The position numbers and the translations under genes are program-made. From positions 2,280,001-2,312,000 of the forward strand of contig NZ_CP010904.1 in assembly GCF_001017655.1 (NCBI RefSeq): DNA of 32,000 nucleotides, in the 5' to 3' direction. Shown in pieces: positions 8,508 to 32,000 of this stretch. The stretch is from Kiritimatiella glycovorans. GTDB taxonomy: Bacteria > Verrucomicrobiota > Kiritimatiellia > Kiritimatiellales > Kiritimatiellaceae. Each line of letters opens with the position of its first letter. Position 1 is the stretch's first letter. The notes below the pieces were generated by a model, which saw only the letters and a program-made list of their open reading frames with translations, did no database searches and was not told where the DNA came from.

Positions 8508-8733
8508 GGTAGCGCCCTCCTCGAAGACGCTCCATTTCCGTTCCGACGGATTCCCGGGAGCCACGCATGTTGAAGAAGGGGTGCTCCTCAACCTTTGCCC
8601 TGGTCCGGTCTACCTTCGCCATCAGCACTCCTTTGGTCTTACCGCGATAGAGAATGTCGACATCTTCATTTCGGTCGAGAGCCTTGAGCACATCGTTCAT
8701 GTGGTATCGCAAATCGACTACTGTTGCCTGCAT
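8497..8733 (-). CDS. type II antitoxin, Phd/YefM family
   Basis: 78 aa. MQATVVDLRYHMNDVLKALDRNEDVDILYRGK matches the Phd/YefM N-terminal fold pattern. An SD (GGAGGCC) lies upstream. Confidence 0.75.
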   Translation of the reverse strand: MQATVVDLRYHMNDVLKALDRNEDVDILYRGKTKGVLMAKVDRTRAKVEEHPFFNMRGSRESVGTEMERLRGGRYRDI

Positions 8734-11667: not shown

Positions 11668-13106
11668 TGACACGCCAAGAGGCCGAAGCGATCTACGACG
11701 CCGGCAAGGAAACCGTCGTGCGGGTACTGTTGATGATGGATGCGCGCATCCGTGCTCTGGAAGAACGCGTTCAGTCTCTTGAGAACCAACTCGCCAAAAA
11801 CTCGCGCAACAGCAGCAAACCGCCCTCCAGCGACGGCTTCAAGAAACCTGCGCCCAAAAGCCTGCGCAAGAAGGGCAAGCGCAAGTCCGGCGGCCAGCCC
11901 GGCCATACCGGCCATACGCTCGCGATGGCCGACAAGCCCGAGCACACCGAAGTGCACCGTGTGAAGGAATGCGAACACTGCGGCCGCTCTCTAGCCGATC
12001 AATCCGTCGAGGGCATCGAAAAGCGTCAAGTCCATGACCTGCCACCCCTGCGGCTGATCGTCACCGAGCACCAGGCTGAAACCAAAACCTGCGCTTGCGG
12101 CCATCTGAACAAAGCCGCGTTCCCCGAAGGGGTCAACGCTCCCGTGCAATACGGCGAGGGGATCAAGGCTGCGGCCGTGTACCTGAAGAACTATCAGTTC
12201 CTGCCCTATGACCGAACCTGCGAACTGCTGAATGACTTCTTCGGCTGCCCGATGAGCGAAGGCACGCTCTGCAATATCATCACCCAATCCCACACGTTGG
12301 CCGCCGACCCCGTCGAGAAGATCAAGGAGTTGATCGAGCAGGCCGCCGTGGCACACTTCGACGAGACCGGCTCACGGGTAGACGGCAAGCTGTGGTGGCT
12401 GCATTCGGCCTCGACCGCACAGGCAACCTATTATGACATCCATCGCAAACGCGGCCGCGAAGCGATCGATGACATCGGCATCTTGCCCGACTTCCTCGGA
12501 CGCGCCGTTCACGACTTCTGGAAACCGTACTTCGGCTACGACTGCCTCCATGGCCTCTGCAACGCCCATCACCTGCGGGAACTGATCTTTGCGCATGAGC
12601 AGCACCAGCAGGACTGGGCCGACCACATGATCGACTGCCTGCTCGACATCAAAGAGGCCGTCGATCTCGCCAAACAGTCGACCGATCATCTTGACCGGCG
12701 GCAGCTACACACCTTCGAAGCCCGCTACCAGCAAGTCCTCGACGAAGGCTACGCGCAGAATCCGCTGCCGCCGTTGCCGCGCAACGCGAAGAAACGACGG
12801 GGCCGCCGCAAGAAGACCAAAGCCCGTAACCTGCTCGAACGGCTCGACGAGCACCGCGATGAAGCGCTTGCGTTCATGTACGACTTCAACGTGCCCTTCG
12901 ACAACAATCAGGCTGAGCGCGATCTACGCATGATGAAGGTGCAGCAGAAAATCTCGGGCATGTTCCGAACCGAGGATGGCGCCAAAGCCTTCTGCCGCAT
13001 TCGAAGCTACATCTCAACCGCCCGCAAGAATGCCGTCGGCGCTATGGATGCGCTGACCCGCCTGTTCAGCGGAAACCCCTTCGTTCCGGCGCTCAATACC
13101 TCGTAG
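11667..13106 (+). CDS. IS66-family transposase (TnpC-type DDE)
   Basis: Has an N-terminal coiled coil, SSKPPSSD and GGQPGHTGHTL. Also a zinc-finger region CEHCG...CACG, then HFDETG, WWLH and CNAHHLRE. The start is taken at ATG 11667 (MTRQEAEAIYDAG). Confidence 0.9.
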   Translation: MTRQEAEAIYDAGKETVVRVLLMMDARIRALEERVQSLENQLAKNSRNSSKPPSSDGFKKPAPKSLRKKGKRKSGGQPGHTGHTLAMADKPEHTEVHRVKECEHCGRSLADQSVEGIEKRQVHDLPPLRLIVTEHQAETKTCACGHLNKAAFPEGVNAPVQYGEGIKAAAVYLKNYQFLPYDRTCELLNDFFGCPMSEGTLCNIITQSHTLAADPVEKIKELIEQAAVAHFDETGSRVDGKLWWLHSASTAQATYYDIHRKRGREAIDDIGILPDFLGRAVHDFWKPYFGYDCLHGLCNAHHLRELIFAHEQHQQDWADHMIDCLLDIKEAVDLAKQSTDHLDRRQLHTFEARYQQVLDEGYAQNPLPPLPRNAKKRRGRRKKTKARNLLERLDEHRDEALAFMYDFNVPFDNNQAERDLRMMKVQQKISGMFRTEDGAKAFCRIRSYISTARKNAVGAMDALTRLFSGNPFVPALNTS

Positions 13107-15970: not shown

Positions 15971-16080
15971 CAAACCCCGGAGCTTGACGTCCACCCCCGA
16001 TTTTGCCACCCTCGCACCATGAAAGCGACACGATCAGCCAGCCTCGGACCTCAACAGCGGCCCCTCACCGGGAACCGCCT

Positions 16081-16794
16081 AAAAAGCAATTTCTTATCAA
16101 GGCCAATATCCCTAATTTAATTTACGAAACAACGATTTCGACGAATTGGGTGAACTGCCCGAACCACACGATGCCCGGAGAGACCTGCACCAATCAGACT
16201 CTGGTTGTCGTCACAAACTCCACCGCAATCGGTGGAGGAGTCATTTTCTATCGCACCTCAGCCAGTTCTGATGTCGATACCGATTCTGACGGCCTCGACA
16301 ATGTCACAGAATACGATCTGGGCACGGATTATCAGAACTCCGATAGCGATGGGGACGGAATGCCGGACGGATGGGAAGTTCAGTACGGATTTAATCCTCT
16401 TTATTATGCCGACGGCGGGTTCGACTATGACTCAGACGGCCTGATCAATGCCGACGAATATTTAAACGGAACATACCCCAACGACACAGACTCGGAAGAT
16501 GACGGTATGCCTGATGGCTGGGAAGTTGCCGGAGGCCTTGATCCGTTGACCGACGATACAAACGGTGACCCGGACGGCGATGGAGTCAACAATCTGGCTG
16601 AATATCAGGGCGGGACTCATCCGCAAATTGCTAACGTCTCGCCTCCCGGCGGTTCTCAGGGAAGCCTGATTTTCCGCTACGATGATGACGGGCGACTGAT
16701 CGAATCGCACCTGAACAACAGTTCGTCCGAACTGTACACACTGACCCCGGCACATAACGTAACGAACTTGAATGTTTTTTCTACAAGCAACTGA
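16081..16794 (+). CDS. thrombospondin type-3 (Ca-binding) repeat protein with a terminal YD repeat; probably 5'-truncated
   Basis: Repeated DxDxDGxxDxxE units are present (DTDSDGLDNVTE, DSDGDGMPDGWE, DYDSDGLINADE, DSEDDGMPDGWE, DPDGDGVNNLAE), followed by LIFRYDDDGRLIES. The reading frame stays open leftward into the GC-rich IS91 end. No SD-preceded start exists; the first AT-rich-zone ATG is 16171. Confidence 0.6.
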   Translation, partial: KKQFLIKANIPNLIYETTISTNWVNCPNHTMPGETCTNQTLVVVTNSTAIGGGVIFYRTSASSDVDTDSDGLDNVTEYDLGTDYQNSDSDGDGMPDGWEVQYGFNPLYYADGGFDYDSDGLINADEYLNGTYPNDTDSEDDGMPDGWEVAGGLDPLTDDTNGDPDGDGVNNLAEYQGGTHPQIANVSPPGGSQGSLIFRYDDDGRLIESHLNNSSSELYTLTPAHNVTNLNVFSTSN

Positions 16795-16816
16795 TTGAGA
16801 GGTACATATAAATGAA

Positions 16817-18160
16817 GGTTCTTTCTCGAATTTTGTGGATGAAAGCGTGAGACATCGCCCCAGATCTGCGCAAATGGTTGTGAACGCAATCATATACAGC
16901 AGGAGGAAGCGATGTCTCAGAAGTCATTGTTCACAGATTTGCTCGGGATTCAAGGATGGGGCGTAGTCGCCGGTGGAATTCGTATCGAGGAAGATGGCAG
17001 TGTGACGGTTCGAATCGATCGACGCAGTGTTGGTTACAGCTGTGGTCAGTGCGGGGAGGGGCTGTTGTTCACATACGACACGCAGCCACCGCGACGGATC
17101 CGGGACTTCCCGATCTGGGGCCGACAGTGCTACTTGGAAGTCGAGTTCGTCCGTGTGGATTGCCCTCGTTGCGGCGTGGTCATCGAGGGCTTGGACTGGG
17201 TTGAACGGTATGCTCGCCAGACCGTCCGTTATGAGAAGTACGTGGCAGGCTTGTGCGATCTGCTGCCAGTCAGCGATGTGGCCGCCCTGGAGGGCCTGAG
17301 TAAAGATGCCGTTTACCGAATGGACAAGAAGTGGCTGCAACGGCGTGATGCCAAGCGAGAGGAGCGCACGGTGCGATATCTGGGGATCGATGAGATCTCG
17401 CTGCGCAAGGGGCACCGCTACGCCACGGTTTTCTATGACTTGGAGCGCAAGGAGGTGATCGGCTTGGTAAAGACACGCAAGGAGCGCGCTGTGGGCGGGT
17501 TCTTCCGCTGCTTCGGTCGCAAGCGCTGCAAGGCTGTCGAGGCCGTGTGCATGGACCTCTGGCAGCCCTTCCTGAACAGCGTCCGACGGCACTGCAAGAA
17601 CGCCGTCGTTGTCTTCGATAAGTTCCATGTCTACAAGTACCTCAGTGATGCCATTGAGGCCGTACGTCGCCACGAGCAGTCCATATGCTCTGACGAAGAG
17701 GGCAAGCTGATCAAGGGCACGCGCTGGCTCTGGCTCAGGGCCTCACGCAACCTGAAGCGCAAACACAAACAGACTCTCGAACAGATCATGGCAATCAACC
17801 GACAATTACAGAAAGCGTACCTGCTCAAGGAGGACTTCGAGGCGTTCTACGCGTGCTCGACACGCGAAGAGGCCGAAGCCTTCCTGAAGGGGTGGATCAA
17901 GCGGTGTAAGCAGAGCCGGCTGGAGCCATTCATCAAGCTCGCCAAGCGCCTGGTCCGGTGGTCGCACGGCATCTTCTCCTACTTCGAATATCGCATCACC
18001 AACGGCGTGGCCGAGGGCATCAACAACAAAATCAAAGTACTCAAACGCAGGAGCTATGGCTTCCACGATGAGCACTACTTCTTCCTCAAAATACTCAATG
18101 CAACTGGAGCCCTACCCAGCTTCGAGCAACTCAGTGACCCACAATTTTAGCGAAAGAACC
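16817..18160 (+). mobile_element. ISL3-family insertion sequence (1344 bp)
   Basis: The IRs are ggttctttctcgaattttgtgg (16817-16838) and the reverse complement of 18139-18160, ggttctttcgctaaaattgtgg (18/22). A perfect 8-bp direct repeat TAAATGAA lies at 16809-16816 and 18161-18168. Confidence 0.9.
16912..18150 (+). CDS. ISL3-family transposase
   Basis: 412 aa. Has the N-terminal zinc-finger CGQCG...CPRCG and LGIDEISLRKGHRYATVFYDL. Also VCMDLWQPF, FDKFHV and GVAEGINNKIKVLKRRSYGF. Confidence 0.9.
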   Translation: MSQKSLFTDLLGIQGWGVVAGGIRIEEDGSVTVRIDRRSVGYSCGQCGEGLLFTYDTQPPRRIRDFPIWGRQCYLEVEFVRVDCPRCGVVIEGLDWVERYARQTVRYEKYVAGLCDLLPVSDVAALEGLSKDAVYRMDKKWLQRRDAKREERTVRYLGIDEISLRKGHRYATVFYDLERKEVIGLVKTRKERAVGGFFRCFGRKRCKAVEAVCMDLWQPFLNSVRRHCKNAVVVFDKFHVYKYLSDAIEAVRRHEQSICSDEEGKLIKGTRWLWLRASRNLKRKHKQTLEQIMAINRQLQKAYLLKEDFEAFYACSTREEAEAFLKGWIKRCKQSRLEPFIKLAKRLVRWSHGIFSYFEYRITNGVAEGINNKIKVLKRRSYGFHDEHYFFLKILNATGALPSFEQLSDPQF

Positions 18161-18163
18161 TAA

Positions 18164-21100
18164 ATGAATAACCGAATGCTCACTATTCTCGGAGTGGTTT
18201 TTTCTCTCGGCACGGCCTATGCCGGGATGGATTCTATCGGAGGATGGCATGCCGTTGGCAGTGACAACTCTTGTTTTGTCAGTAATGCGGCATCTCAGAT
18301 TTTGGCTGAACCAATGGTGTTATCCACCATGGAAAGTGGCGGCAGCGTACTTCCGGAAATGGCAATCACGGAGGCCATTCGGTCCCAGGCTGCAGCATTA
18401 AATAATGATCCTGTTGAAATTTTTGAGTTTGTTCGCAACCGGATTGGCTACGAGCTTTATTACGGTTGTTTTAAAGGTGCAGAAGGAACGCTGTTGAGCG
18501 GGTTTGGAAATGATTTGGATCAATGCGCTTTGCTGGGATCTTTGCTCAAGGTGGCGGACGATTCGATTGATGTCAGTTATGTTCGCGGAAATGTAATTTA
18601 TACGGGTGAGTTTTTAACGAATCTCACGGGTTGCCCAACGAACCATTTCCAACATTTGAACCCATGGTTTTTGATTCATGCGCCTGTACAGCGAGCTGAT
18701 GGGTGGGAATTCGATAAACATTACTGGCTTCAGGCGGAGATTGACGGAACAACCTATCAGCTGGATCCTTCGTTTGTACCGCATGAGTCCGCTCCCGAGG
18801 ATGCGGAAACTGTGCTGGCACAAGTCACTGGCTATACGCGAACCAATTTTTTAAGTACCGCATCGAATGGAGCCACTGTTTTTACTTCCGAACAGGTCCA
18901 AAATGTAAATGAGACAGCAGTCGAAAATCTTTTGCGTGGCTACGTGGCGCAGGTTCATCAGGCCCAAAATGATGGCGATTCTGAGGTTGAACAACTTGTC
19001 GGGCAGCGCATGCCTCAAAGTGAACCTCTTTCGGTTCTCAGCACGAATCTGCCACCGGACATGGTTCGGGTTGCGTCCTCCAGTGTATTGGGCAGCTTAC
19101 CAGACAATATGTTTGCCCGCTATGAGCTGACGCATGAATCGGGTTTCAGTTCTGTTGCTTTGAAGGGGTATGAGCTGGCAGGGAAACGGATCACGATTTT
19201 TTATGATTCCGATGATGGGAACAGGCCGGTTCTTCGACTGGATGGAGAGGAAAAGGCCCGCGGAACAACGGCATTAACGGTTGGGTATGTTAAGAATCTC
19301 ACCCTTAAAGTACTTCTGCCTTCGTTTTTTGGAATGTATGAGAAGGCCAATGCAAACAAGCCATGTGATTTGACCGTTGGTTACAGCTATAGTGTGGTTT
19401 CAGACCTCCTAATGGCTTCTCCAAAAGTGCTGGCGCGAGAGAGCCGTAAACTGGCGGCTTTCCGGTCACAGGGCTTAAGCGACGCTTCGGAAGAAGTGCT
19501 TGGAACCACGTTGCACCTGATGAATCTATTTTACTGTCGTCAGAACACGTTGCAAAACAAGCTTCTGAGTCGTCTGACCGGAATTCCGTCGCTGGGGCTT
19601 TTCCAGGGCGGAGTTGTGGCTCAGGAGGAAGGCTATTATATTGACCTGCCGTTGCTTGGAATGTCTTACGTAATGCAGATGCCGGATTCCTCGTCATTGT
19701 TTCAAGCCTCGTCGTTCATGGCCAGCGGTTTGGAGCATGGGATGCTGGAGCAGATCATGGGACCTGAGCGTCCGGGAATTTCTTCAACGAAGGGCATTGC
19801 ATTGAATAATGCAAACGGGAAGCACACGTATTATGCGACCTCTGCAAACTGGACCTCCGGCCTGAACGTTAAGTCCAAGCTTTCCGGCTATACTCCGGCT
19901 CAAAAAACCGATTTAGGCACTGAAATCAATAAGGGATACAGGATGGTGCTTCCACGAAATGCAGTGACGGTCGGTAATTGGACGGGAATCACTTATTTCA
20001 AGGTTTATTCACAGGCTCTGGGTGCGATTATTTCAGGAGCCTACGGCACCCAGAACGGGGGTTATTCAGGTTATCAGGGATATGTGCCGCCGCCGGTTGT
20101 TAATACGGTCACTCGAACCACGTACATTCCGCCCCCGCCGCCTCCTATTCAGCTTTTCCGCCCCAAAAGCATCGAGCCGGTTGATCTCTATTCCGGCGAC
20201 TATCTTCTGGATCACAAGGACTTAACATTATCCGGCCCGTTACCGTTGATTCTTAACCGTCATTATAACAGTGGGCAGGTTGCCGCAGATGGAGTGATGG
20301 GGCCGGGCTGGTGCCATTCACTTCAAATCGAAATCGACGAACACAGTAGCGGCGATTTTGCTTTTGGCGAACGAGACACGGCTGATGCCGCCGCCGTTTT
20401 AGCCGCCCAAATGATCGCGTTGGATCTGATGCGTAATGAAGACAACGCGAAAGGCTGGACGACGGCTGCCATTGCTGCAAAATGGGCTCTGGACTCCGCC
20501 GTGGAAAATACAATTACCGTTCGAATCGGCGAATCCGGAAGACAATTCACGCGCCTGCCTGATGGGGAATTCAATCCGCCCCCTGGATCAACAGATAAAC
20601 TGATACAAACAAACGGCGTTTATATTTTACAGGAACGGAATGCCAACAAGTATACGTTCAACACCAACAATCTGATTGCCGAAATTGCGGATACAGACGG
20701 AAACACGCTTACGTTTACTTACAATGCACAGACCAACCTGCAAAGCGTTGTCAGCAGTTTTGGGCCGACCCTCTCTTTCAGTTATACCGGCGGGTTGCTG
20801 ACGAGCGTGAGCGATAACTCGACGCCGACCCGCACCATTCAATACCAATATGATTCCAGCGACAACCTGACGAACTTTGTGGATGCCGTCGGGTTTGACT
20901 GGGGAATCGCCTATAGCGACACAAACCATCCGAGCGCAATTACTTCGCTAACCGATCCAGAAGGCATTACCACTATTCAGAACTTTTACAATTCCCTTGG
21001 TGTTGTGACTCAGCAGATATCCGCAACATCCAATATTTGGAAATTTCACACATCCAATGCCCAGAGCATCGAAGAAGATCCCGCTGGACGAAAGACAATC

Positions 21101-24100
21101 TACCGTTTCGATTTAAAGGGCCGCACCGTTGAAACACAGGCCGCAGACGGCAACAGCACATTCCGCAGATATAACGAACGCGATCAGGTTACAAATTCTG
21201 TTAATGCCGCAGGTGTGACCAATCTCCTCGTATATGACAACAGCCTGAACCTGGTCGAAAAGCGGGAATCTGCCGGAACATCCGAAGAGCGGGTTTCGGT
21301 TTATGGATATGATGCAAGCAATCGGCTGGTCTGCATCAGCAATCAGCTCAGCGCCACAGAGTGGCAGGTTTCCCGTTTTGAGTACGATTCCGAACACCAT
21401 GTGACAAAAACAACAGATGCCCTCAGCAACGAAACAACCTTTGTTTATTACCCCAGCGGGCTGCTTCAGCAAAAGAGTGAAGGGAACGGCTTGCGTGTCA
21501 CGTCATACACGTACGATTCATACGGAAACCCTGACACCGTCATTTCCACAGATTCAGGAACGAATGATTTCCTTTATAATGCCAGAGGAGAACTGCTCCA
21601 GCATACGGACAGCCGAGGGCAGACAACGGAAACCACCTATGATGCCAGCGGAAACCTGTTGCTTACCGAATTTTCTGACGGCACCACCGTCAGCAACAGC
21701 TATTGGAACAACGGGCTTCTCAAAACGGTTACCGATGCGAGAGGACATACCACGCACTACACCTATACTCCGGCCTACAAACAGAAAACAATCACCGCCC
21801 CGGATGGAGGAGTCGTCTCCAACGCATATGATGCCGCCGACCGCCTCGTTTCTGTTACGGATGCAAAAGGAAATGTTGTCAGTAATCTGCTGGATGACGT
21901 TGGAAGAACAATTGCCAGTTATTCAACGCTCACCACCCGGCAGTTCGCATACGATAAGGCAGGAAACATCACGAACTCTGTAATTGATCCTTCAGGGCTT
22001 AATCTTTGGGATCATACGGCATATGATGATTTCAGCCGCCCGGTTTCCAAATCCACGCCGCTGGCAACGGAGACGTTTCAGTATGACCCACTTGGACGGA
22101 TGACCAATCGGATTGATCAGATTTCCAAACATTGGAAAACTGAATTTGACCCGCTAAGTCGCCCCATCGCGTCCGTGCGCCCCTCCGGCGCGCGTGAGGA
22201 AAGCGACTATAATGCGCTCAGCTTCCGGACGCAGTTCCGCAATGCCGAAGGCAACGTCATTTCCTTTGGTGTGGATGCGCAAAGTCGAGTTACTTCCATC
22301 ACCAATGCCATCGGCAACGTGACCCGGTATCAGTTTGATAATAACGGAAACCTGACCAATCGCACCGATGCGGCAGGCCGATCAACGGCGTATATTTTTG
22401 ACGGGATGAACCGGATCGACAGGGTCGAGTATCCTGACATGACACAGTCTGTTTTCGACCATGACGCGAGCGGCAATCTGATCCTTTCCTCCAATGAAAA
22501 TGCCGAAATTACTTTCGCGTATGACACGATGAATCGACTTTCTGAGGCAGATGTTTCTCTGCGTTCTTTGAGTTCTTTCGCGGTTACAAACTCCTGCGAT
22601 CTGAATGGAAACCGAACCAACATTCTCTATCCCGGCGGATTGAGCGTTTCGTACAGTTTTGACGAAGAAAACCGCTTGGAGAGTGTGACCGCGAATCACG
22701 CGAATTTCGCGAATGAATTTTCATTCGGATATGATGGAGCTTCGCGCCTCACCAACATCGTCTATCCAAACTCCGTGGTTTCAGCTTTTGAATACGATGC
22801 CGAAAACCGGATTGTGGGCTTCACTCACGGAACTTTCTGTGAGCATGCAATTCAGCGGGACGTTCGTGGCTTTAAAATAAGGGAGGATATTTACGAAGGG
22901 CTTGTTCCCAACTTCACGAATAATCTTCACCAAACCCTTACGCACAATGACGCCGATCAGCTTGTTTCAGACGGTTTGGACAGCTATGCGTATAACAATA
23001 ACGGATGCCTTACCAATACCGCTGGAGCTGAATATCAGTGGGATTACAACGATCATCTTACATCCGTCAATGGAACAGAATACCTGTACGATGCGTCGGG
23101 TGCGCGGATTGGACGGATTTGGGGCGGGGTTACAAACTACTTTATTCTGGATTACCACGCTCCGCTCAAGATGCCGTTAGCCGAGGCGAATGCTGATGGG
23201 AGCATTACACGCTACTATGTTTGGTCGTCACACGGGCTGTTAGCGCATTTTGACCGCAACCCCGCCACCGGCGCGATCACATCAACTCGCTACTATCATG
23301 CGAATGAGCAAAAAAGCGTTCTCGCACTTACTGATGAAACCGGGAGCGTTACCGACCGGTTTGCGTATTCGCCATATGGACAGGTTCTCGGACGAACCGG
23401 CACCACAGATACGCCGTACCAGTGGATTGGAGGTCTTGCCGTTCGCAACGAAGGCGGCGGTTTATATTTTATGCTCAACCGCTATTACTCGGCTGACGTG
23501 CGACGCTTCCTCAGCATCGACCCCGCAGGTATCGACAGTTTCCCGAACCTCTATGCTTATGCGGATATTAATCCATTGGCGTTCGTAGACCCCCTCGGAT
23601 TATGGCAGGTCACAATCGGTGCTGCATATGGCTATGGTGGACGTGTTACGTTTGGGAAGAATAATGGCCGGTGGAATGTGGGGGGTGCTGTTGGATATGG
23701 CCTTGGTGCTATGATTGATTTTGCTCCGGGAAATAGTGCTCCCGCATTCGCTTCTCAAGGCGAAGCATCTCATGTTGGCGTTGAAGTCTCAGGAGGTGCC
23801 AAACTCCTAAATGCACTTGATGTTTCTGGAGGCCTTCGGGTACGTGTGGATGCCGATGATGCAACTAATGTGGAAGGCCGAGGAGGACTGATTGGTTCGC
23901 TAACCATCCCGGGAACAATTATCAATGCTAATGGATCTGCTGACGTTGTTGTTCAAGGAAATATTTCTCAGAAGACTTCCGATTCATTTTTGGAAGCAAG
24001 TCCAGAGCCGACCAGTTTTGGATTTGGAGCTATGGTTTTTGGAGGGATCACTGGGGGTACTTCTTGGCAAAGCAAGCCCCCGCAGGGTAGTTCCCCAAGT

Positions 24101-24139
24101 ACAACCCATGGACACACAACAACAGGATATTTGAAATGA
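18164..24139 (+). CDS. Rhs/YD-repeat polymorphic toxin with Sec signal peptide and N-terminal transglutaminase-like domain
   Basis: The signal peptide is MNNRMLTILGVVFSLGTAYA|G. A transglutaminase-like triad pattern is present: Cys121 in GNDLDQCALLG, His186 and Asp201 in HYWLQAEIDGTTYQLDPS. After a Pro-rich linker the shell begins at VDLYSGDYLLDHKDLTL (about 20155). Dozens of YDxxGN repeats follow, then an Rhs core ending DINPLAFVDPLGL (23588-23602). Confidence 0.9.
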   Translation: MNNRMLTILGVVFSLGTAYAGMDSIGGWHAVGSDNSCFVSNAASQILAEPMVLSTMESGGSVLPEMAITEAIRSQAAALNNDPVEIFEFVRNRIGYELYYGCFKGAEGTLLSGFGNDLDQCALLGSLLKVADDSIDVSYVRGNVIYTGEFLTNLTGCPTNHFQHLNPWFLIHAPVQRADGWEFDKHYWLQAEIDGTTYQLDPSFVPHESAPEDAETVLAQVTGYTRTNFLSTASNGATVFTSEQVQNVNETAVENLLRGYVAQVHQAQNDGDSEVEQLVGQRMPQSEPLSVLSTNLPPDMVRVASSSVLGSLPDNMFARYELTHESGFSSVALKGYELAGKRITIFYDSDDGNRPVLRLDGEEKARGTTALTVGYVKNLTLKVLLPSFFGMYEKANANKPCDLTVGYSYSVVSDLLMASPKVLARESRKLAAFRSQGLSDASEEVLGTTLHLMNLFYCRQNTLQNKLLSRLTGIPSLGLFQGGVVAQEEGYYIDLPLLGMSYVMQMPDSSSLFQASSFMASGLEHGMLEQIMGPERPGISSTKGIALNNANGKHTYYATSANWTSGLNVKSKLSGYTPAQKTDLGTEINKGYRMVLPRNAVTVGNWTGITYFKVYSQALGAIISGAYGTQNGGYSGYQGYVPPPVVNTVTRTTYIPPPPPPIQLFRPKSIEPVDLYSGDYLLDHKDLTLSGPLPLILNRHYNSGQVAADGVMGPGWCHSLQIEIDEHSSGDFAFGERDTADAAAVLAAQMIALDLMRNEDNAKGWTTAAIAAKWALDSAVENTITVRIGESGRQFTRLPDGEFNPPPGSTDKLIQTNGVYILQERNANKYTFNTNNLIAEIADTDGNTLTFTYNAQTNLQSVVSSFGPTLSFSYTGGLLTSVSDNSTPTRTIQYQYDSSDNLTNFVDAVGFDWGIAYSDTNHPSAITSLTDPEGITTIQNFYNSLGVVTQQISATSNIWKFHTSNAQSIEEDPAGRKTIYRFDLKGRTVETQAADGNSTFRRYNERDQVTNSVNAAGVTNLLVYDNSLNLVEKRESAGTSEERVSVYGYDASNRLVCISNQLSATEWQVSRFEYDSEHHVTKTTDALSNETTFVYYPSGLLQQKSEGNGLRVTSYTYDSYGNPDTVISTDSGTNDFLYNARGELLQHTDSRGQTTETTYDASGNLLLTEFSDGTTVSNSYWNNGLLKTVTDARGHTTHYTYTPAYKQKTITAPDGGVVSNAYDAADRLVSVTDAKGNVVSNLLDDVGRTIASYSTLTTRQFAYDKAGNITNSVIDPSGLNLWDHTAYDDFSRPVSKSTPLATETFQYDPLGRMTNRIDQISKHWKTEFDPLSRPIASVRPSGAREESDYNALSFRTQFRNAEGNVISFGVDAQSRVTSITNAIGNVTRYQFDNNGNLTNRTDAAGRSTAYIFDGMNRIDRVEYPDMTQSVFDHDASGNLILSSNENAEITFAYDTMNRLSEADVSLRSLSSFAVTNSCDLNGNRTNILYPGGLSVSYSFDEENRLESVTANHANFANEFSFGYDGASRLTNIVYPNSVVSAFEYDAENRIVGFTHGTFCEHAIQRDVRGFKIREDIYEGLVPNFTNNLHQTLTHNDADQLVSDGLDSYAYNNNGCLTNTAGAEYQWDYNDHLTSVNGTEYLYDASGARIGRIWGGVTNYFILDYHAPLKMPLAEANADGSITRYYVWSSHGLLAHFDRNPATGAITSTRYYHANEQKSVLALTDETGSVTDRFAYSPYGQVLGRTGTTDTPYQWIGGLAVRNEGGGLYFMLNRYYSADVRRFLSIDPAGIDSFPNLYAYADINPLAFVDPLGLWQVTIGAAYGYGGRVTFGKNNGRWNVGGAVGYGLGAMIDFAPGNSAPAFASQGEASHVGVEVSGGAKLLNALDVSGGLRVRVDADDATNVEGRGGLIGSLTIPGTIINANGSADVVVQGNISQKTSDSFLEASPEPTSFGFGAMVFGGITGGTSWQSKPPQGSSPSTTHGHTTTGYLK
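23603..24136 (+). other. Rhs C-terminal toxin domain, glycine-rich, family unassigned
   Basis: This is the 178 aa after DPLGL. It is Gly-rich with glycine-zipper-like runs (GAAYGYGG, VGGAVGYGLGAM, GFGAMVFGGITGG). I could recognise no nuclease, deaminase or ART catalytic motif. Confidence 0.6.
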
Positions 24140-24519
24140 TTAAATTATCTCCAAAAAGCTGGTGTCTCATAATAATCTGTGTTTTCGGCGGTGCTGTTTT
24201 GGTGACAACAATTTTAAATATGCATGTTTACAAAAGACCCGAAATAGAATACTGCAAAGCTTTTTTAAACAAACAGAAGAATATTTTTCCAACGTCTATT
24301 GGGTCTGTTAAATCCGTTGACTATAGAAAACAAGCCGCAGCAAAAGTGTCATTTAGAAAAGATGGGATTCAGGGGTTCTATTGTTTTGATGTGTCTGGTG
24401 ATACGGGAGAAATAAGGGTTCGCGTACATTGGAATAATACGAAAAACAATGATGATTTTCGAGTTGTTCGGGTTGAGCAGATTCGTGGAAGTGATTACCC
24501 TTTTCAAATTTGGCCGTAG
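24136..24519 (+). CDS. putative cognate immunity protein (N-terminal TM anchor plus small beta-rich domain)
   Basis: 127 aa. The start overlaps the rhs stop (ATGA). A hydrophobic helix is CLIIICVFGGAVLVTTIL. The role is assigned from its position immediately 3' of the toxin. Confidence 0.6.
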   Translation: MIKLSPKSWCLIIICVFGGAVLVTTILNMHVYKRPEIEYCKAFLNKQKNIFPTSIGSVKSVDYRKQAAAKVSFRKDGIQGFYCFDVSGDTGEIRVRVHWNNTKNNDDFRVVRVEQIRGSDYPFQIWP

Positions 24520-24536
24520 GAAAAAGGAGAACGACT

Positions 24537-26369
24537 GTGTTAAGTCGAACCCGCTATCAGTTTGATAATAACGGGAACCCAACCAATCGAATTGATTCCA
24601 TGAGCCGTTCCACCGGCTATGTTTTTGATGACATGAACCGGATGGTTCGGATTGATTATCCGAATGCAACACAGGCCGGTTTCGACCACGACAACAACGG
24701 AAACGTAACACTCTTCTTCAATGAGAATGCAGAGGTTGCTTTTGCATATGATGAGATGAACCGACTCGCCGCTTCGACCCAATCTGTGTCTTCTGTGAAT
24801 TTTGTGGTTCAAAATTCGTTCGATTTGAACGGCAATCGAACAAACATCACCTATCCGGGTGGCCTTGTTGTCAGTTACTCATTTGATGAGGATAATCGTC
24901 TGACATCGGCTTCCGCTAAAAATGCGAATGGCACATACACCTTTTCTTTCGGATATGATGGAGCATCGCGGTTGACCGGCATTTCCTATCCGAACGGAAT
25001 CAATGCAACGGTTGGTTATGATGCAGAAAGCCGCGTCACCAACTATGTTCACGGAACCGTTTTGAACCACGTAATTACTCGTGATTTGCGAGGTTTCAAA
25101 ACCCGTGAGGATATTTATGCCGGACTGATTCCAAGCTTTACGAATGGCTTGCGCCAGACTCGTGCGCACAACGATGCCGATCAGCTTCTTTCGGCAGGTG
25201 ATGAAGATTACGCCTATGATGCGAATGGAAACCTCACCAACGCCAGCGGAACGACGTATGAATGGGATTATGACAACCGCCTGCTCCGTTTCGGCCACAC
25301 GGAATACAGTTATGATGCTTCCGGTGGACGGGTTGAACGCGTCGAAAATGGAACAACCAACTTCTTCGTGCTCGACTATGCCGATCCCTTGAAACGACCG
25401 CTTGCCGAGGTAGATGGTGCGGGAACTATCACACAATATTATATCTGGAGACCCGCCGGATTATTGGCGCACATTGAGGCAAACGGCGCGGTTTATTATT
25501 ATCACCAAAACGAGCAGGGTTCCACATTGGCGCTCACCGATACCAATGCAGCCGTTGTTGCTCAGTATGCCTACAGCCCGCACGGAGAAATTCTTCAGAA
25601 AACCGGTTCAGTTGAAACGCCCTATACGTTCATTGGCGGCTTCGGCGTACGTGCTGAAAACAGCGACACATACTATATGCTCAATCGCTACTACTCCGTT
25701 TCTCAGCGCCGCTTCCTTTCGATCGACCCCGCTGGCATCGACAGTTTTGCCAACCTCTATGTTTACGGGAACCTGAATCCTTTGTTTGGCGTAGACCCAA
25801 CTGGGTTGTTGACCGTTTTCGTTCATGGAACCTATTCGGACAGCTCGACGTTTAATCAGGCTACGAGAAATATTTATGCGGAAACATTTAATGATCAAAA
25901 TCAAATTTCATTTGAGTGGAGCGGCATGAACAACACCCTTGCAAGAAAAATTGCAGGGCGGCGACTGGCAGGAAATATTAACGAATACCGCACACAGTAT
26001 CCAAATGAACCCATAACCATTGTTTCCCATAGTCACGGAGGAAATGTTGCATTTGAGGCCAGTAAACGAGCTGGCATTGACAATCTGGTTACGCTAGGAA
26101 CCCCAGCAAGGACATTTACTCACAATCCGAACGAGTCCAATATTGGTGAGTGGTACAATGTCTATTCCCATGGGGACAAGGTTCAGGTTTCAGGTGGCGG
26201 TTTGTTCCAGCCTTTTTTCCAGGAAGCAGGTCCGGCAGGTCGTACATTTAGTGGTGCCCATAACATTGAAACAAAGCACTCTTCTGGATGGGTACAAACA
26301 CACCTTGATCTCACAGGACGCGTGGGTGCTGATGCCGTCGGAAACTACATGAATAGGCCTGCAAAATGA
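24537..26369 (+). CDS. orphan Rhs C-terminal module with alpha/beta-hydrolase (lipase/esterase-like) toxin domain
   Basis: It is collinear with, and by eye about 60% identical to, residues encoded by 22322-23602 of the main rhs. The Rhs core ends at GVDPTGL (25794-25808). The CT carries VFVHG and the nucleophile elbow VSHSHGG. AAGGAG (24524-24529) lies 7 nt before GTG 24537; the track lists a TTG at 24510. Confidence 0.8.
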   Translation: MLSRTRYQFDNNGNPTNRIDSMSRSTGYVFDDMNRMVRIDYPNATQAGFDHDNNGNVTLFFNENAEVAFAYDEMNRLAASTQSVSSVNFVVQNSFDLNGNRTNITYPGGLVVSYSFDEDNRLTSASAKNANGTYTFSFGYDGASRLTGISYPNGINATVGYDAESRVTNYVHGTVLNHVITRDLRGFKTREDIYAGLIPSFTNGLRQTRAHNDADQLLSAGDEDYAYDANGNLTNASGTTYEWDYDNRLLRFGHTEYSYDASGGRVERVENGTTNFFVLDYADPLKRPLAEVDGAGTITQYYIWRPAGLLAHIEANGAVYYYHQNEQGSTLALTDTNAAVVAQYAYSPHGEILQKTGSVETPYTFIGGFGVRAENSDTYYMLNRYYSVSQRRFLSIDPAGIDSFANLYVYGNLNPLFGVDPTGLLTVFVHGTYSDSSTFNQATRNIYAETFNDQNQISFEWSGMNNTLARKIAGRRLAGNINEYRTQYPNEPITIVSHSHGGNVAFEASKRAGIDNLVTLGTPARTFTHNPNESNIGEWYNVYSHGDKVQVSGGGLFQPFFQEAGPAGRTFSGAHNIETKHSSGWVQTHLDLTGRVGADAVGNYMNRPAK

Positions 26370-26728
26370 AAAAATTATTAATGGAATCTCTGATTGCTGG
26401 GGCTGTTTTACTCGGACTTATATCACTGTTGAATGTTCTTGTTATACCCCTCGTGTTTTCATCTTTGTATGCTATCAATAGCTTAGCGGTTACGTTTTAT
26501 ACCTTTCTCATAACAGCCCCTATTGCTTTTATTTTTGGGTTCTTTGTATGGTGGATATTTTCGAAGCTTCGATTGCCATGGAGATGCGTTCTGGTTGGGT
26601 TCTTTTTTTCAATCTACGTCTTTTTCAACGTAAAATTCTACCCCATGGAAAAGGTAAATAAGGAGGATAGGCTACCTACTTTTGAAGAAGTTCTGCGCAA
26701 GCCAGAGGGCGAGTTCAATGAGTTTTAG
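26366..26728 (+). CDS. putative immunity protein, polytopic membrane protein
   Basis: 120 aa. The start overlaps the orphan stop (ATGA). Three or four hydrophobic segments are visible (AGAVLLGLISLLNVLVIPLVF, FLITAPIAFIFGFFVWWIF, VLVGFFFSIYVFF). Confidence 0.6.
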   Translation: MKKLLMESLIAGAVLLGLISLLNVLVIPLVFSSLYAINSLAVTFYTFLITAPIAFIFGFFVWWIFSKLRLPWRCVLVGFFFSIYVFFNVKFYPMEKVNKEDRLPTFEEVLRKPEGEFNEF

Positions 26729-26735: not shown

Positions 26736-26815
26736 GTGTCAGGTTTCACCAAACCTTGGAACCCCGATCGACCCGGCGCAACCGAGCAATTTATCTATGA
26801 CGCTCTTGGAAACCT
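26736..26815 (+). pseudogene. vestigial third rhs fragment
   Basis: Manual translation gives ...VSGFTKPWNPDRPGATEQFIYDALGNL, a YD-repeat unit. It is cut off at 26815, where the duplicated mobile-element fragment begins. Confidence 0.5.
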
Positions 26816-26971
26816 GTTACCGACCAAATTGATGTCGTAGAGCGTTGCCAAATTAAAACGGTATGATTTCGGCGGATTCCCACGCTGTGACTGTATAAAT
26901 GTTCCCACTTGCGTCATAGGCTTGTTTCAGGTTTACGATGTCGCTGGCCCGATAAAAAATGACCGCACCGG
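26815..26971 (+). repeat. 157-bp direct repeat, copy A (period 854 bp)
   Basis: Identical by eye to 27669-27825 except for one substitution (tttcgg vs ttttgg). Confidence 0.9.
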
Positions 26972-26988
26972 TTTTTGCCGGTGCGGTC
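26952..26988 (-). terminator. rho-independent terminator (potentially bidirectional)
   Basis: The hairpin is gaccgcaccgg-tttttg-ccggtgcggtc (26961-26988). It is preceded by an A-run on the + strand (a T-run for the minus strand) and followed by gtattgtttt. It lies 18 nt beyond the stop of the minus-strand ORF ending at 27006. Confidence 0.7.
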
Positions 26989-27005
26989 GTATTGTTTTCC
27001 GGGGT

Positions 27006-27317
27006 TTACGATGCCTGCGGCCTGCCTGTGCGTCGCACGCAGACAGGCTGTTTGAATGCCTCCAGTTTATCCATGGCCTGGCTGAAGCTCATGCCCATGA
27101 CGCGGGTGAGCAGGTCGATGGCGTTACCGCCGGTTCCGGTGTCCGGGCAGACCCAGTAGGTTTCTTTGATGACGATGTCTGCGGGCAGGTCGTAAACTCT
27201 CCAGTTGCCGTTTGTGAGCTCCTGCATGGGATAACCCATTTGTTCGAGCAGGGGCGCGAGTGCGACGCGCCGGGCTGTGCGGATTTGTTCGTCGGTCCAT
27301 TTATTGCGTAACGTCAT
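27006..27317 (-). CDS. small conserved protein of a transposon/Mu-like module, function unknown
   Basis: 103 aa starting MTLRNKWTDEQIRTARRVALAPLLEQMGY, with GGNAIDLLTRVMGMSFSQAMDKL, which resembles primase-type zinc-binding-domain proteins. It overlaps the ATPase fragment stop by 17 nt. Confidence 0.45.
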   Translation of the reverse strand: MTLRNKWTDEQIRTARRVALAPLLEQMGYPMQELTNGNWRVYDLPADIVIKETYWVCPDTGTGGNAIDLLTRVMGMSFSQAMDKLEAFKQPVCVRRTGRPQAS

Positions 27318-27725
27318 GTTCTTTCCTCCAATGCGGCTGCATGAGGACGCGGTTGACCTGTTCGAGGCCGACTTCGCGTTTTCGGTCGCGGACGGTTTCG
27401 AGCAGGGAGCCGACGCAGAGGTTGCGCACGCGGCGCAGGACGCCTTCGGAGGTGCGTACGACAAGTGCGAGCGCATCGTCGGTGAAGACGGCGTGCGGCA
27501 GTCCGCAGCGGTCGAGCTGATCGCGGATGAAGGTTTTAACGTCGTCGGGCGCGAGGGGCTTGAGGTGCACCGAGTAGGTGATGCGGCTTCGGATGTCGTC
27601 GTTAATGCCGAGGCGCAGTTTGTGGATGAGCGGGGGCTGGGCGATGAGCAGCAGGTTGTGCGATTTGGTGTTACCGACCAAATTGATGTCGTAGAGCGTT
27701 GCCAAATTAAAACGGTATGATTTTG
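27301..27725 (-). pseudogene. 5'-truncated AAA+ ATPase of ExeA/TniB-like transposition-helper type
   Basis: Only the C-terminal part is present: ...NLLLIAQPPLIHKLRLGINDDIRSRITYSVHLKPLAPDDVKTFIRDQL...GVLRRVRNLC. There are no Walker A/B motifs. The upstream end lies inside repeat copy B. Confidence 0.6.
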
Positions 27726-27825
27726 GCGGATTCCCACGCTGTGACTGTATAAATGTTCCCACTTGCGTCATAGGCTTGTTTCAGGTTTACGATGTCGCTG
27801 GCCCGATAAAAAATGACCGCACCGG
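27669..27825 (+). repeat. 157-bp direct repeat, copy B
   Basis: See copy A. It ends in the left arm of the terminator hairpin and is fused directly to the hsdM fragment. Confidence 0.9.
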
Positions 27826-28237
27826 GATTTTCTATGCCCAGGGCGTAAAGGCCAATGTGCTCTTCTTCGACCGCAAACCCGCGCAGGAAAAGCCGTGGAC
27901 GGAGAAGCTGTGGATCTACGATCTGCGCACCAACATGCACTTTACCCTCAAGACCAATCCGCTCAAGCGCGCCGACCTCGATGATTTCGTGAATTGTTTC
28001 AATTCCGACAACCGACATGACCGCAAAGAATCCGAACGCTTCAAATGCTTCAGCTACGACGAACTGGTGAAACGCGATAAGGCCAACCTCGACATCTTCT
28101 GGCTCAAGGATGAATCGCTCGAAGATTCCGCCAATCTGCCGGACCCCGATGTGATCGCCCTCGAAATCACCGAAGACCTCGAAGCCGCCCTGGAACAGTT
28201 CGCCACCATCGCCGAGGATTTGAATAAAAGCGACTGA
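27821..28237 (+). pseudogene. hsdM: 3' fragment of type I restriction-modification methyltransferase
   Basis: TGIFYAQGVKANVLFFDRKPA...WIYDLRTNMHFTLKTNPL...FSYDELVKRDKANLDIFWLKDESLED is the conserved HsdM C-terminus. The N6-methylase catalytic region is absent, and no hsdS or hsdR is present. Confidence 0.8.
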
Positions 28238-29696: not shown

Positions 29697-29832
29697 TGAC
29701 CCATTCTCGACGGTCGCAGACTATGGACTACTCGCCGGAGTTGTGGCAGAACACTCGCAGGAAGCGGGAGCCCTGATGCTGACTTAAAGTTCGAAAACAC
29801 TGGCTCCGCTATCGGGACCACCGCTTATTGTT

Positions 29833-30857
29833 TCATTGCTGTGCTCGTAGTCCATCCCGAAGCTTTTCCGCGATCCGAGCCCGCAGGCTCTTCGGGGCGA
29901 GCACTTTCACGTCGGGCATCCAGGACAGGACCCAGCGTACCAGTTCCTTGCGTCCTGTCGTCTCCAGCCGCATCTCGACACGGCCGTCCCGGCGCGTTCG
30001 GAACTCCTGGGTGGGGTGCCACTGCCGTTCGGTGATGTACACGGCCAGTTTCGGCTCGAAAAGCAGCCGGACCTTGATCGGCTTCTCGCCGCCCACGATG
30101 CCGAACGCCTGCCGGGCGTATGTCTCGGGGCTGAACTCGGCCGCTCGCGTGTAACCCTGTCCCGTCGCCGCGATCCGCCGGAACCGCGACAGGGCGAACG
30201 TCGCCACACGCCCCTTCTCCGCGTTCCACGCCATCAGGTACCAGTTCCCATGGTAGGCGAGCAGGTGGTAGGGGTGCAGTTCGTACTCGGATACGCGCCC
30301 GTCGAAGGTCTGGTACGTCGCCCGGACCGCCTCGCAGCGTTCCACGCATCCAGCCAACTTCGCCCATACATCGGGATCGATCCGCACCCGGTCCTCGGGC
30401 AGGACGCCGACGTGCTCACTGAGCCAGCCTGCCACGGCGTAGCCGAAGGCGAAGACGGGTCCGGTTCGATGGTCACATCGCCCTCCAGCGACTCGGCAAT
30501 TTTATCCAGCACCGAGCGCATGTCCAGGTGGAGTGGTGTGTCCTCGTAATGGGCAAGGAGCTTGCGGGCAAGCGCGAAGCTGAACGCCTCCCGGCGGCTG
30601 ATCCGCACCGGTGGCAACATGTAGGTTTCGTCCGTGAGCCGGAAACCATGCCGGGCCTCGTCGTAGGCCAGCGGGGCGTTCTCCTCGTCGCGCAGGAAGT
30701 CCAGATCCCGCGCCACGGTCCGGCGCGACACCTCGAACTCCTTCATGAAGTCGCTGCTGTTCGGCAGATAGCCGGTCTCTGCGCCCTCGCGCACCATCTG
30801 GACCATGCGCCGGATGCGGTAATACTGGGGTCTGGAGCCTGCCTTCATTTTTCTCAA
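29833..30857 (-). pseudogene. WYL-domain regulator, frameshifted
   Basis: It is split into track ORFs 30234..30857 and 29833..30435. A 32-nt insertion at about 30427-30458, relative to copy 1, breaks the frame. Confidence 0.85.
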
Positions 30858-30913
30858 ACTTTCTTCAGGGGTATGCCGTTAGATGACACACCCTCTTTTA
30901 TACATTGGGCGGC

Positions 30914-31774: not shown

Positions 31775-32000
31775 CCGAACCGAGCCAATCTCGTCAACGA
31801 CAACTACATGGCCCCGTCGGCGACAACTACACTTCCCCATGTTGACGGGGCTGGTGGGCCCCGGGTTTCCGGGGTTTGAGGGCGATGGGCCGATAGGCCC
31901 GAGCCTTCCCCCTCCCACCCCGCAGGGGCACCCCCCATGGGGGGTGCGCGATTCTCACAATTGCGATTTTCATCGTTTTCGATTCCGTTCGCCCGCCTTC

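Follow-up and report, generated by a model that had tools for sequence, protein, structure and literature searches.

A Sec-type Rhs toxin locus of Kiritimatiella glycovorans with a predicted all-β C-terminal domain and a membrane-anchored candidate immunity protein

The closest described relatives of the locus reported here are the RHS toxins of the Sec/type II secretion system (T2SS) class surveyed by Zhang et al. (PMC3482391), which combine a signal peptide, a degenerate transglutaminase domain, RHS repeats, a variable C-terminal domain (CT) and an immunity gene, carry orphan cassettes downstream, and come from phyla among which Verrucomicrobia is named. We analyzed a 32,000-nucleotide stretch of the Kiritimatiella glycovorans genome (contig NZ_CP010904.1, positions 2,280,001 to 2,312,000; hereafter the window), in which a gene for a 1991-residue Rhs protein with the same order of parts is followed by a gene for a 127-residue membrane protein. 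This locus departs from the surveyed systems in that the N-terminal domain is too diverged for the transglutaminase family PF01841 and sits in a module of ~650 aa that is also found alone, and in that the CT and immunity families are absent from both that census and Pfam (PMC3482391). Novelty here resides in the CT and its candidate immunity protein as a pair; known features make up the rest, namely the Rhs shell, the inactive transglutaminase-like N-module, a Sec signal, an orphan lipase cassette and the clutter of insertion sequences (ISs). On balance, we lean towards a Sec-exported Rhs toxin that releases a membrane-inserting β-barrel, which an inner-membrane-anchored periplasmic immunity protein would block.

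A second point of comparison is Tse5 (PA2684) of Pseudomonas aeruginosa and its immunity protein Tsi5. Here too, an Rhs shell surrounds a ~16–18-kDa non-enzymatic, membrane-directed CT, an Asp pair 23 residues apart lies at DPxGL, the immunity protein resides in the inner membrane, and action from the periplasmic side has been proposed (PMC9637101, PMC10684867). Tse5 differs in its PAAR-like N-terminus and its delivery with VgrG by a type VI secretion system (T6SS), in a CT that is proposed to be an α-helical pore former, and in the two transmembrane (TM) helices of Tsi5 (PMC9637101, PMC10684867). Tse4, Ssp6, the CdiA-CT EC93 family, EsxX, Caulobacter CdzC/D and Tox-WTIP are likewise small, Gly-rich, non-enzymatic, membrane-targeting toxins with membrane-embedded immunity, but they are built, or predicted to be built, from TM helices with GxxxG zippers, whereas the window CT is predicted to be all-β with GxG spacing. 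The pore-forming antibacterial effectors that we found in the literature on Rhs proteins, T6SS, contact-dependent inhibition (CDI) and the type VII secretion system are helical or proposed to be so, namely Tse4, Tse5, Ssp6, VasX, Tke5, the CdiA-EC93 family and EsxX (PMC9637101, PMC3482391), and the 2012 polymorphic-toxin census contains one pore-forming CT only, Tox-WTIP, with two TM helices (PMC3482391).

WapA of Bacillus subtilis and Streptococcus suis is also an Rhs toxin that depends on a signal peptide and works without an injection apparatus. It differs in its monoderm host, its wall-binding repeats and, in B. subtilis, its tRNase CTs. Here, the closest relatives come from metagenome-assembled genomes (MAGs) of the diderm Planctomycetes-Verrucomicrobia-Chlamydiae (PVC) group (Kiritimatiellales, Chthoniobacterales), so an outer membrane must still be crossed.

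The C-terminal domain and its predicted fold

The Rhs gene and the gene behind it are laid out as follows, with positions given in the window and residues in the Rhs protein.

18164..24139, + strand: Rhs toxin gene, an open reading frame (ORF) of 1991 aa
18164..18223, + strand: predicted Sec signal peptide (aa 1–20), cleavage after A-Y-A
18362..18775, + strand: transglutaminase-like core lacking the canonical catalytic Cys (aa 67–204)
18776..20173, + strand: rest of the N-terminal module (aa 205–670), ending in a Pro-rich linker
20174..23602, + strand: Rhs/YD-repeat shell (aa 671–1813), made up of the DUF6531 plug, YD repeats and Rhs-associated core
23588..23602, + strand: DPLGL self-cleavage motif (aa 1809–1813), within NPLAFVDPLGL (P-x4-DPxGL)
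23603..24070, + strand: conserved CT core (aa 1814–1969, CT residues 1–156), from WQVTIG... to ...GGTSW
24071..24139, + strand: variable, Ser/Thr/Pro-rich CT tail (aa 1970–1991 and stop codon), with a predicted local distance difference test score (pLDDT) of 52–56
24136..24519, + strand: candidate immunity gene, 127 aa, in ATGA overlap with the Rhs stop codon

An initial annotation of this DNA had described a Gly-rich CT of 178 aa, and the domain (aa 1814–1991) indeed has that length, with 34 Gly (19%) and no Cys. It had no match in Pfam at E ≤ 10 or in NCBIfam at E ≤ 1, and neither the single sequence nor the family profile matched any sequence in the Protein Data Bank (PDB), the deposited Tse5 chain included. 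A known enzymatic toxin family, which the annotation had regarded as evidence against its own reading, was found in none of the three, and the empty PDB result speaks against recognizable sequence homology with Tse5 or other solved toxins. A word-index search recovered four CT homologues at 63–91% identity. When a profile of these four homologues was run against 1.84 billion representatives, 64 proteins were obtained at E ≤ 1e-3, 19 of them at E ≤ 1e-10 and eight at E ≤ 1e-30; no family member scored above any Pfam threshold. The match lies at the C-terminal end in almost every protein, with at most seven residues after the aligned stretch in 58 of 70 sequences (the others being mostly partial N-terminal matches), and in the homologues examined the CT generally starts right behind the DPxGL-type motif of an Rhs core, diverged cores included. 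Matches in named genomes numbered only two, both in PVC-group MAGs; the closest genomic homologue (91%) comes from a Kiritimatiellales MAG and a distant one from a Chthoniobacterales MAG.

The all-β Ntox families of the 2012 census are all represented in Pfam, and none was matched by the CT family (PMC3482391). Ntox14 was considered as an identity and rejected: only a single member reached this α+β family, at a noise-level E of 0.15. Over 34 full-length CTs, the near-invariant columns comprise 11 Gly, two Trp, N20 and D85, which points to structural conservation and offers no plausible catalytic set. These columns, together with the lack of family matches, bear out the earlier statement that the CT has no recognizable enzymatic motif, and the suggestion that its family may be new agrees with the absence of Pfam, NCBIfam and PDB-sequence matches and with the 64 representatives that define it. 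Judged by its sequence, the CT is a predicted modular toxin domain of a rare, previously undescribed family. The tail is missing from most of this family; the window subclade and several others have 3–25 residues after the W.

For aa 1814–1991 the initial annotation had proposed structure prediction. AlphaFold2, supplied with a 34-sequence alignment, returned an all-β model (mean pLDDT 87.9; predicted template-modelling score 0.74) in which eight strands form a hairpin meander and no helix is present. The strands span CT residues 2–20, 23–41, 55–69, 72–85, 89–101, 108–120, 125–134 and 139–156, and the tail (157–178) is disordered. Five GxxxG spacings occur in the CT, all of them inside predicted β-strands, and the dominant spacing is GxG. 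Because of this placement in a predicted all-β domain, the glycine-zipper segments of the initial annotation do not hold. Of its proposal that the CT is a membrane toxin acting through such zippers, the membrane-directed, non-enzymatic part survives as our best guess and the zipper part does not. Any pore formed by a domain with this predicted fold would be a β-barrel, unlike the helical Tse5, Tse4 and CdiA-EC93.

Two features of the model suggest that the barrel is closed. Strand 8 has 18 strand-state residues compared with 10 in its hairpin partner, strand 7; residues 149–156 outrun strand 7 and must therefore pair elsewhere, with strand 1 as the sole candidate. In addition, strands 1 and 8 have the highest pLDDT (95–97), unlike the edges of an open sheet. 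From these features we infer that strand 1 pairs with strand 8. With tight hairpins, the eight strands would overlap over ~11–13 residues, about one membrane thickness, and strands 8, 1 and 2 would reach ~7 residues beyond the overlap on the side of the termini.

The composition of the strands was assessed in the 34 homologues. In all eight strands, one face is 51–88% hydrophobic and the other 8–25%. Aromatics account for 26–33% of the hydrophobic face in strands 1, 2 and 8, which are also the best-conserved segments of the CT, and Gly and charged residues each make up as much as 42% of the polar face. The protein ends exactly in W or F in 28 of 67 family members (42%), against an aromatic background of 11%, and W or F occurs within the last eight residues in 51 of the 67 (76%). 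Six sub-threshold Pfam matches to outer-membrane barrels were found among 62 members: Toluene_X (in two members), OMP_b-brl, OMP_b-brl_2, Legionella_OMP and LpxR. Approximately 20 of the top 50 weak Foldseek matches in the PDB are outer-membrane barrels or β-pore toxins and assemblies; fHbp, nitrobindin and an Rv0999-like barrel are also among the weak matches.

Several of these features, namely what would be a Gly-rich charged interior set against a hydrophobic exterior, the lack of Cys, strands of 13–19 residues and the terminal aromatic, are typical of eight-stranded outer-membrane proteins (OMPs). Like OmpX/Ail, the OmpA N-domain, OmpW and PagP, the CT has ~150–170 residues, predicted to form eight antiparallel meander strands in which hydrophobic or aromatic residues (facing lipid in such barrels) alternate with small or charged ones (facing the interior), is high in Gly, lacks Cys and, in much of its family, has a C-terminal aromatic. 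It differs from these small barrels in having no significant sequence or Foldseek similarity to them, in being fused to an Rhs core instead of being made as a signal-peptide-bearing precursor, in its short loops on both sides and, for the window member, in a 23-residue tail past the last strand.

The candidate immunity partner, the Rhs shell and the N-terminal module

The 127-aa protein consists of an N-terminal TM anchor (~aa 9–29) and a domain of ~95 aa with RPE, VSF and VRVHW motifs. Its ATGA overlap and single N-terminal hydrophobic helix match the initial description of a single-pass protein overlapping the Rhs stop codon. Wherever the DNA behind the CT is readable, in 11 of 11 loci, a protein of 106–133 aa with one N-terminal TM helix begins at the stop codon of the CT or overlaps it; the sole exception is L001/L004, where an IS-type gene follows the CT and the C-terminus of the CT is altered. 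Relative to the window protein, the partners at the other loci group as follows.

L003/L008 and L002/L009: clear homologues, at 59% and 41% identity
L006/L007 and L010: homologues, at BLASTP E 1e-19 and 3e-13
L013 and L016: homologues
L011, L012, L005 and L015: same architecture, homology not proven

Homology between the clear homologues (alignment A7) and the L011, L012 and L005 partners (alignment A8) was considered and not accepted; hhalign gave a probability of only 30%, and A8 is therefore treated as alike in architecture and not as homologous.

The immunity protein had no match in Pfam or NCBIfam, and its alignments, used as profiles, found nothing meaningful among PDB sequences. Among the homologues, the L010 partner matched the Pfam family Coa1 (PF08695) at 23.1 bits (gathering cutoff 22; profile positions 3–105 of 117), and the L006 partner reached 13.7 bits. 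Coa1/TIM21-type proteins are anchored at the N-terminus and carry their domain on the outer side of an energized membrane. The immunity family resembles them in its single N-terminal TM anchor followed by a domain of ~100 aa that would lie outside (in the intermembrane space or the periplasm). Coa1 differs in being a cytochrome-oxidase assembly factor and not an immunity protein, and the link from the window to Coa1 runs only through the immunity-family homologues. Positive residues precede the TM helix in the immunity homologues, and Cys40 and Cys83 of the immunity protein are invariant in its three closest homologues; this charge pattern and the conserved Cys pair agree with a periplasmic immunity domain. 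The pairing of CT and partner gene provides strong evidence, at the level of sequence, for a toxin–immunity module that would act in the periplasm or at the membrane, with neutralization as the predicted outcome. The membrane-anchored immunity protein postulated at the outset is thus matched by a conserved partner at all 11 loci, as expected of an immunity gene.

When sequence rules are applied by eye, the N-terminus of the Rhs protein, MNNRMLTILGVVFSLGTAYA followed by G, shows an n-region, then a hydrophobic core and then the cleavage motif A-Y-A (A-x-A). Signal-like hydrophobic N-termini are also found in four other full-length Rhs proteins with the same CT family. Within the shell, RHS_repeat (PF05593) was matched in Pfam at E 3e-64 over seven stretches and TIGR01643 in NCBIfam at E 4.8e-45, the DUF6531 N-terminal plug was placed at aa 671–727 (Pfam), and Rhs_assc_core (TIGR03696; NCBIfam, E 5e-15), which carries the aspartyl autoprotease motif, at aa 1735–1813. 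The Asp pair D1786/D1809 of the Rhs core is 23 residues apart. The catalytic pair of Tse5, D1141/D1164, has the same spacing, and its CT begins directly after DPxGL (PMC10684867); by analogy with D1164-P-x-G-L1168 of Tse5, a cut is expected after L1813 (PMC10684867).

A Pfam scan of the 37 ORFs in the window detected no PAAR, VgrG or other T6SS family. No PAAR, VgrG, DUF4150, MIX or FIX-type domain was found in the window Rhs protein or in the four other full-length CT carriers, and the CT copy in L013, on a 104-kb contig, has no T6SS gene within a distance of 10 kb. Given the signal-like N-termini and the lack of T6SS families, PAAR and VgrG, Sec-dependent export is the best-supported first step of delivery. 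The initial annotation therefore stands on the cleavable signal peptide, the full YD shell, the DPLGL motif, the absence of PAAR, VgrG and other T6SS genes from the window, and the preference for Sec over T6SS.

It fares differently for the N-terminal module, in which it had recognized a Cys121/His186/Asp201 transglutaminase-like triad. Rhs aa 1–670 had no match in Pfam or NCBIfam, PF01841 did not match the window sequence itself even at E ≤ 10, and the N-domain profile found nothing meaningful among PDB sequences. The AlphaFold2 model of aa 21–670, made from a five-sequence alignment, was unusable (pLDDT 33.9). Word-index searches of 5.8 billion clustered proteins with the single sequence and with a profile yielded only four relatives of the module, all weak, and a metagenome scan for it found none. 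The best of the relatives, P0005, aligns with window aa 76–142 at E 1.8e-9 against 5.8 billion sequences, with 52% identity, and aligns again at an HYW...DPSF motif. P0005 itself passes PF01841 (Transglut_core) at 25.7 bits (cutoff 23), P0006 falls narrowly under the threshold at 22.9 bits, and the source of P0072 labels it a transglutaminase-domain protein. A transglutaminase fold for the N-domain is plausible by transitive homology only, through P0005.

The canonical transglutaminase core reads G-x-C-x-x-[F/W]-A, with the nucleophile two residues past the Gly. In the five-sequence alignment A6, G115, D119, W188 and D201 are invariant and H186 occurs in four of the five; the motif is G-N-[D/S/A/S/P]-x-D, which in the window is G115-N-x-x-D119. 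From the known motif, we take the canonical Cys position to be D117, at which the relatives have S, A, S and P. C121 falls at the +4 "small residue" position, one helical turn past D117, and is not conserved, the relatives having A, A, S and S. The residues named in the proposed triad exist, but with D117 at the canonical Cys position that thiol triad is not there, and the N-domain is a predicted inactive transglutaminase-like module. Nor is the N-terminal combination new, as had been thought possible. Among polymorphic toxins of the Sec/T2SS class are some with transglutaminase domains inactivated by the loss of at least one of C/H/D (PMC3482391), and Zhang et al. (2012, Biol Direct 7:18; PMC3482391) give exactly this order of signal peptide, inactive transglutaminase and RHS repeats, both in their Table 1 and in section 19.

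The ~650-aa N-module is also found free-standing, with a signal peptide, in P0005 and P0006 (730–818 aa), and it therefore exists in its own right outside toxins. Both proteins share the Cys-less GN-x-x-D core; aa 205–670 align only loosely with them (alignment A4).

The island around the locus

The genes adjoining the toxin–immunity pair are listed below.

16003..16794, + strand: ORF with bacterial thrombospondin type-3 (TSP3) Ca-binding repeats (Pfam TSP3_bac, 26.1 bits, cutoff 25)
16817..18160, + strand: ISL3-family insertion sequence, with transposase ORF 16912..18150 (Pfam DDE_Tnp_ISL3, E 7.7e-81)
24510..26369, + strand: orphan Rhs C-terminal fragment, with 433 aa of shell and core (RHS_repeat E 7e-20; Rhs_assc_core at 355–433)
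26366..26728, + strand: multi-pass membrane protein of 120 aa, its start overlapping the orphan Rhs stop codon

The ISL3 insertion, which was overlooked in the initial annotation, falls exactly on the start codon of Rhs. Inverted repeats, GGTTCTTTC..., are present at 16817–16838 and 18139–18160, and the element (16817..18160) is bordered by an 8-bp target-site duplication, TAAATGAA, at 16809–16816 and 18161–18168, the right copy of which contains the Rhs ATG. Before the insertion, 17 bp separated the end of the upstream TSP3 ORF from the Rhs start, and a GAGAGG ribosome-binding site lay in this gap (~16797–16802).

No signal peptide is visible in the TSP3 ORF (16003..16794), and its 5′ end may therefore be truncated. 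In L006/L007, the gene overlapping the Rhs start encodes a TSP3 protein that bears a signal peptide (L006:8864-9421, L007:143-700), and a TSP3 gene directly before Rhs was seen in two independent settings, the window prior to the insertion and L006/L007. Similarity between the window and L006/L007 TSP3 proteins is limited to the repeats, and a TSP3 gene is absent upstream of the L013 Rhs gene. We rejected TSP3 as an obligatory partner, since it occurs only in the window and L006/L007 and the similarity lies in the repeats only; by sequence, the TSP3 protein may be a secreted partner of Rhs. In L015 the upstream gene encodes a PA14/GLEYA adhesin-type protein instead of TSP3. Partners of the Ca-binding or adhesin kind may contribute to display at the surface.

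The CT of the orphan fragment (~nt 25809–26366) is an α/β-hydrolase of the Tle3-like lipase type. It matched Tle3 (PF24322) at 28.3–28.8 bits (cutoff 27) in the nucleophile-elbow region only, with the motif SHSHGG, and other α/β-hydrolase families matched below threshold. A 71% DNA repeat links the fragment to the main Rhs gene (22322–22539). The membrane protein encoded at 26366..26728 had no family match and probably serves the orphan lipase CT as its immunity partner, and 24510–26728 is a second toxin–immunity cassette, membrane-directed like the first. Orphan Rhs cassettes are also present at L002:13-897 and L003:1435-2391, where other Gly-rich, non-enzymatic-looking CTs are followed by small membrane proteins; such arrays seem to be enriched for membrane-directed toxins.

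The GC content of the island is 45–51% compared with 56–70% in its flanks, on account of which the island looks horizontally acquired. Housekeeping genes in the window include those for an aldolase, HisF/HisH-like proteins, lipoate ligase, TrmO and ArgRS, and the window also holds a PIN-domain gene, a DruA-like gene, a WYL regulator, IS66, two copies of IS91, and ISL3. A direct repeat of at least 2.1 kb (96–99% identity) occupies 13436–~15900 and 29829–32000, 16.4 kb apart. Both copies contain a WYL/HTH regulator on the minus strand and an IS91/Y2 transposase, and together they flank the whole TSP3–Rhs–orphan cluster, methylase fragments and ArgRS; the pair could represent a composite mobile unit, with a segmental duplication as the alternative. 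A second direct repeat, of 162 nt (98%), lies at 26815–26976 and 27669–27830, associated with ORFs 26922..27311 and 27776..28237. It doubles the start of a C-terminal fragment of an N6-DNA-methylase (HsdM-like; MFQVYDVAGPIKNDRTG...), with ~850 bp of unrelated DNA in between, an arrangement that looks like an insertion into a type I restriction–modification gene. A three-copy family of direct repeats (~97–165 nt, 76–93% identity) is located at 4.6–7.3 kb, around a small methyltransferase gene (4678–4774, 5780–5876 and 7161–7257; also 5696–5860 and 7077–7241). A DruA-like (Druantia) ORF (10750–11667, + strand) abuts the IS66 transposase (11622–13106, + strand), and a PIN-domain ORF (8130–8591, − strand) lies near; the DruA-like and PIN ORFs are defence or toxin–antitoxin remnants in a stretch rich in mobile elements.

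Proposed mechanism and competing explanations

In the mechanism we lean towards, the exported Rhs protein would probably be held at the cell surface by its dead transglutaminase-like module, after the scheme of Zhang et al. (2012). The YD shell would enclose the 178-aa CT and release it by aspartyl self-cleavage after DPLGL; the motifs for this step are present, and the cleavage itself is modeled on Tse5. The CT would form an eight-stranded antiparallel β-barrel with one hydrophobic, aromatic face and one Gly-rich, charged face, the pattern of small OMPs. Killing would proceed from the periplasmic side, with the rogue barrel inserting into a target membrane, most likely the inner membrane, and causing ions to leak. 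The Coa1-like protein, anchored in the inner membrane with its ~95-aa domain presumably in the periplasm, would bind the CT before insertion, consistent with the observed pairing of the two genes.

Several points weigh against this proposal. The toxicity of the CT is itself a prediction from sequence and model. The ~220-kDa Rhs shell would somehow have to pass the producer's outer membrane and reach the target periplasm without a T6SS. Foldseek searches of the CT model against the PDB and BFVD returned nothing at E ≤ 1e-3 (best E 0.02, TM-scores ≤ 0.25), and no significant match to any OmpX/OmpA-type barrel; the window CT, with 23 residues after W155, has no strictly terminal aromatic; and the window immunity protein has no direct match to Coa1. 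The native ribosome-binding site and promoter context now lie 1.35 kb from the intact Rhs coding sequence, making expression in this strain uncertain. Finally, the alternation of the strand faces does not reveal which face is inside, and it would suit just as well a soluble barrel of the up-and-down type whose interior is hydrophobic.

A CT of the latter kind, akin to lipocalin, avidin or fHbp, would form no pore and would instead poison the target by binding or sequestering some component of its periplasm or envelope, for instance a lipid carrier, a lipoprotein or a piece of the Bam/Lpt/Lol machinery. The lack of any outer-membrane-barrel match above the Foldseek noise, in which fHbp, nitrobindin and the Rv0999-like barrel also appear, favors this explanation, and a periplasmic immunity domain would suit a soluble periplasmic toxin. 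However, a polar face with up to 42% Gly is odd for a solvent-exposed surface and typical of the inside of narrow outer-membrane barrels, ~58 mostly large hydrophobic residues would need to be packed within the eight strands, strands of 13–19 residues are long for this type of barrel, and the C-terminal W/F signature and sub-threshold outer-membrane-barrel matches point elsewhere. We regard a soluble barrel as unlikely and give a membrane barrel roughly twice its weight. The W/F signature, exact in 42% of the family and within the last eight residues in 76%, would also suit an OMP mimic whose C-terminal β-signal-like strand (...GGxSW) engages the β-barrel assembly machinery (BAM) of the victim, leaving a leaky outer-membrane barrel or a jammed BamA. 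The peak of conservation in strands 1, 2 and 8 and the generally OMP-like composition speak for such a mimic, but the tails of 3–25 residues past the W in the window subclade and others would be poorly tolerated by a classical β-signal, and an inner-membrane-anchored immunity protein better suits protection of the inner membrane; we think it very unlikely. The boldest form of the membrane proposal makes the CT family the first class of β-barrel warheads among polymorphic toxins, an OMP mimic that reaches the periplasm of a rival and there either acts as a "misplaced porin" by inserting itself into the inner membrane or, through its β-signal-like C-terminal strand, is assembled by the victim's BAM or jams it, with a periplasmic antidote of Coa1/TIM21 fold. 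We hold this to be a long shot, if a slightly better one than the outer-membrane mimic just described.

The remaining explanations concern delivery and the state of the locus. Most characterized Gram-negative Rhs toxins use T6SS, and the window covers only 32 kb of an island rich in mobile elements, so that this protein could be ordinary cargo of a T6SS or another contact-dependent system, with the genes for machinery and adaptors located beyond the window and its "signal peptide" being just a hydrophobic N-terminus. Of all the explanations considered this is the least probable, as signal-like N-termini are present in all of the full-length carriers, none of them has a domain of the PAAR, VgrG, DUF4150, MIX or FIX type, the surroundings of the L013 copy contain no T6SS gene within 10 kb, and the architecture fits the class that Zhang et al. 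(PMC3482391) assigned to Sec/T2SS. That the copy is silenced or in decay, which would be compatible with any mechanism, deserves to be taken more seriously than any of the other alternatives, though we still doubt it. The ISL3 element, with its 8-bp duplication across the ATG, uncouples Rhs from its promoter and ribosome-binding site, the same island contains IS66, two IS91 copies and an orphan cassette, and the upstream TSP3 ORF has no signal peptide. Against decay, the 5973-nt coding sequence is unbroken with all of its functional motifs intact, the immunity gene is intact as well, and expression could come from an outward IS promoter or by read-through from the transposase gene, whose end lies 13 bp upstream in the same orientation.

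If the membrane-inserting barrel that we favor is real, the CT would represent a structurally new class among antibacterial Rhs, T6SS and CDI pore formers and, with it, a second structural means of killing through membranes. The CT would also provide a small, self-contained model of chaperone-free or BAM-hijacked β-barrel insertion, and its partner would give the Coa1/TIM21 fold a new role.

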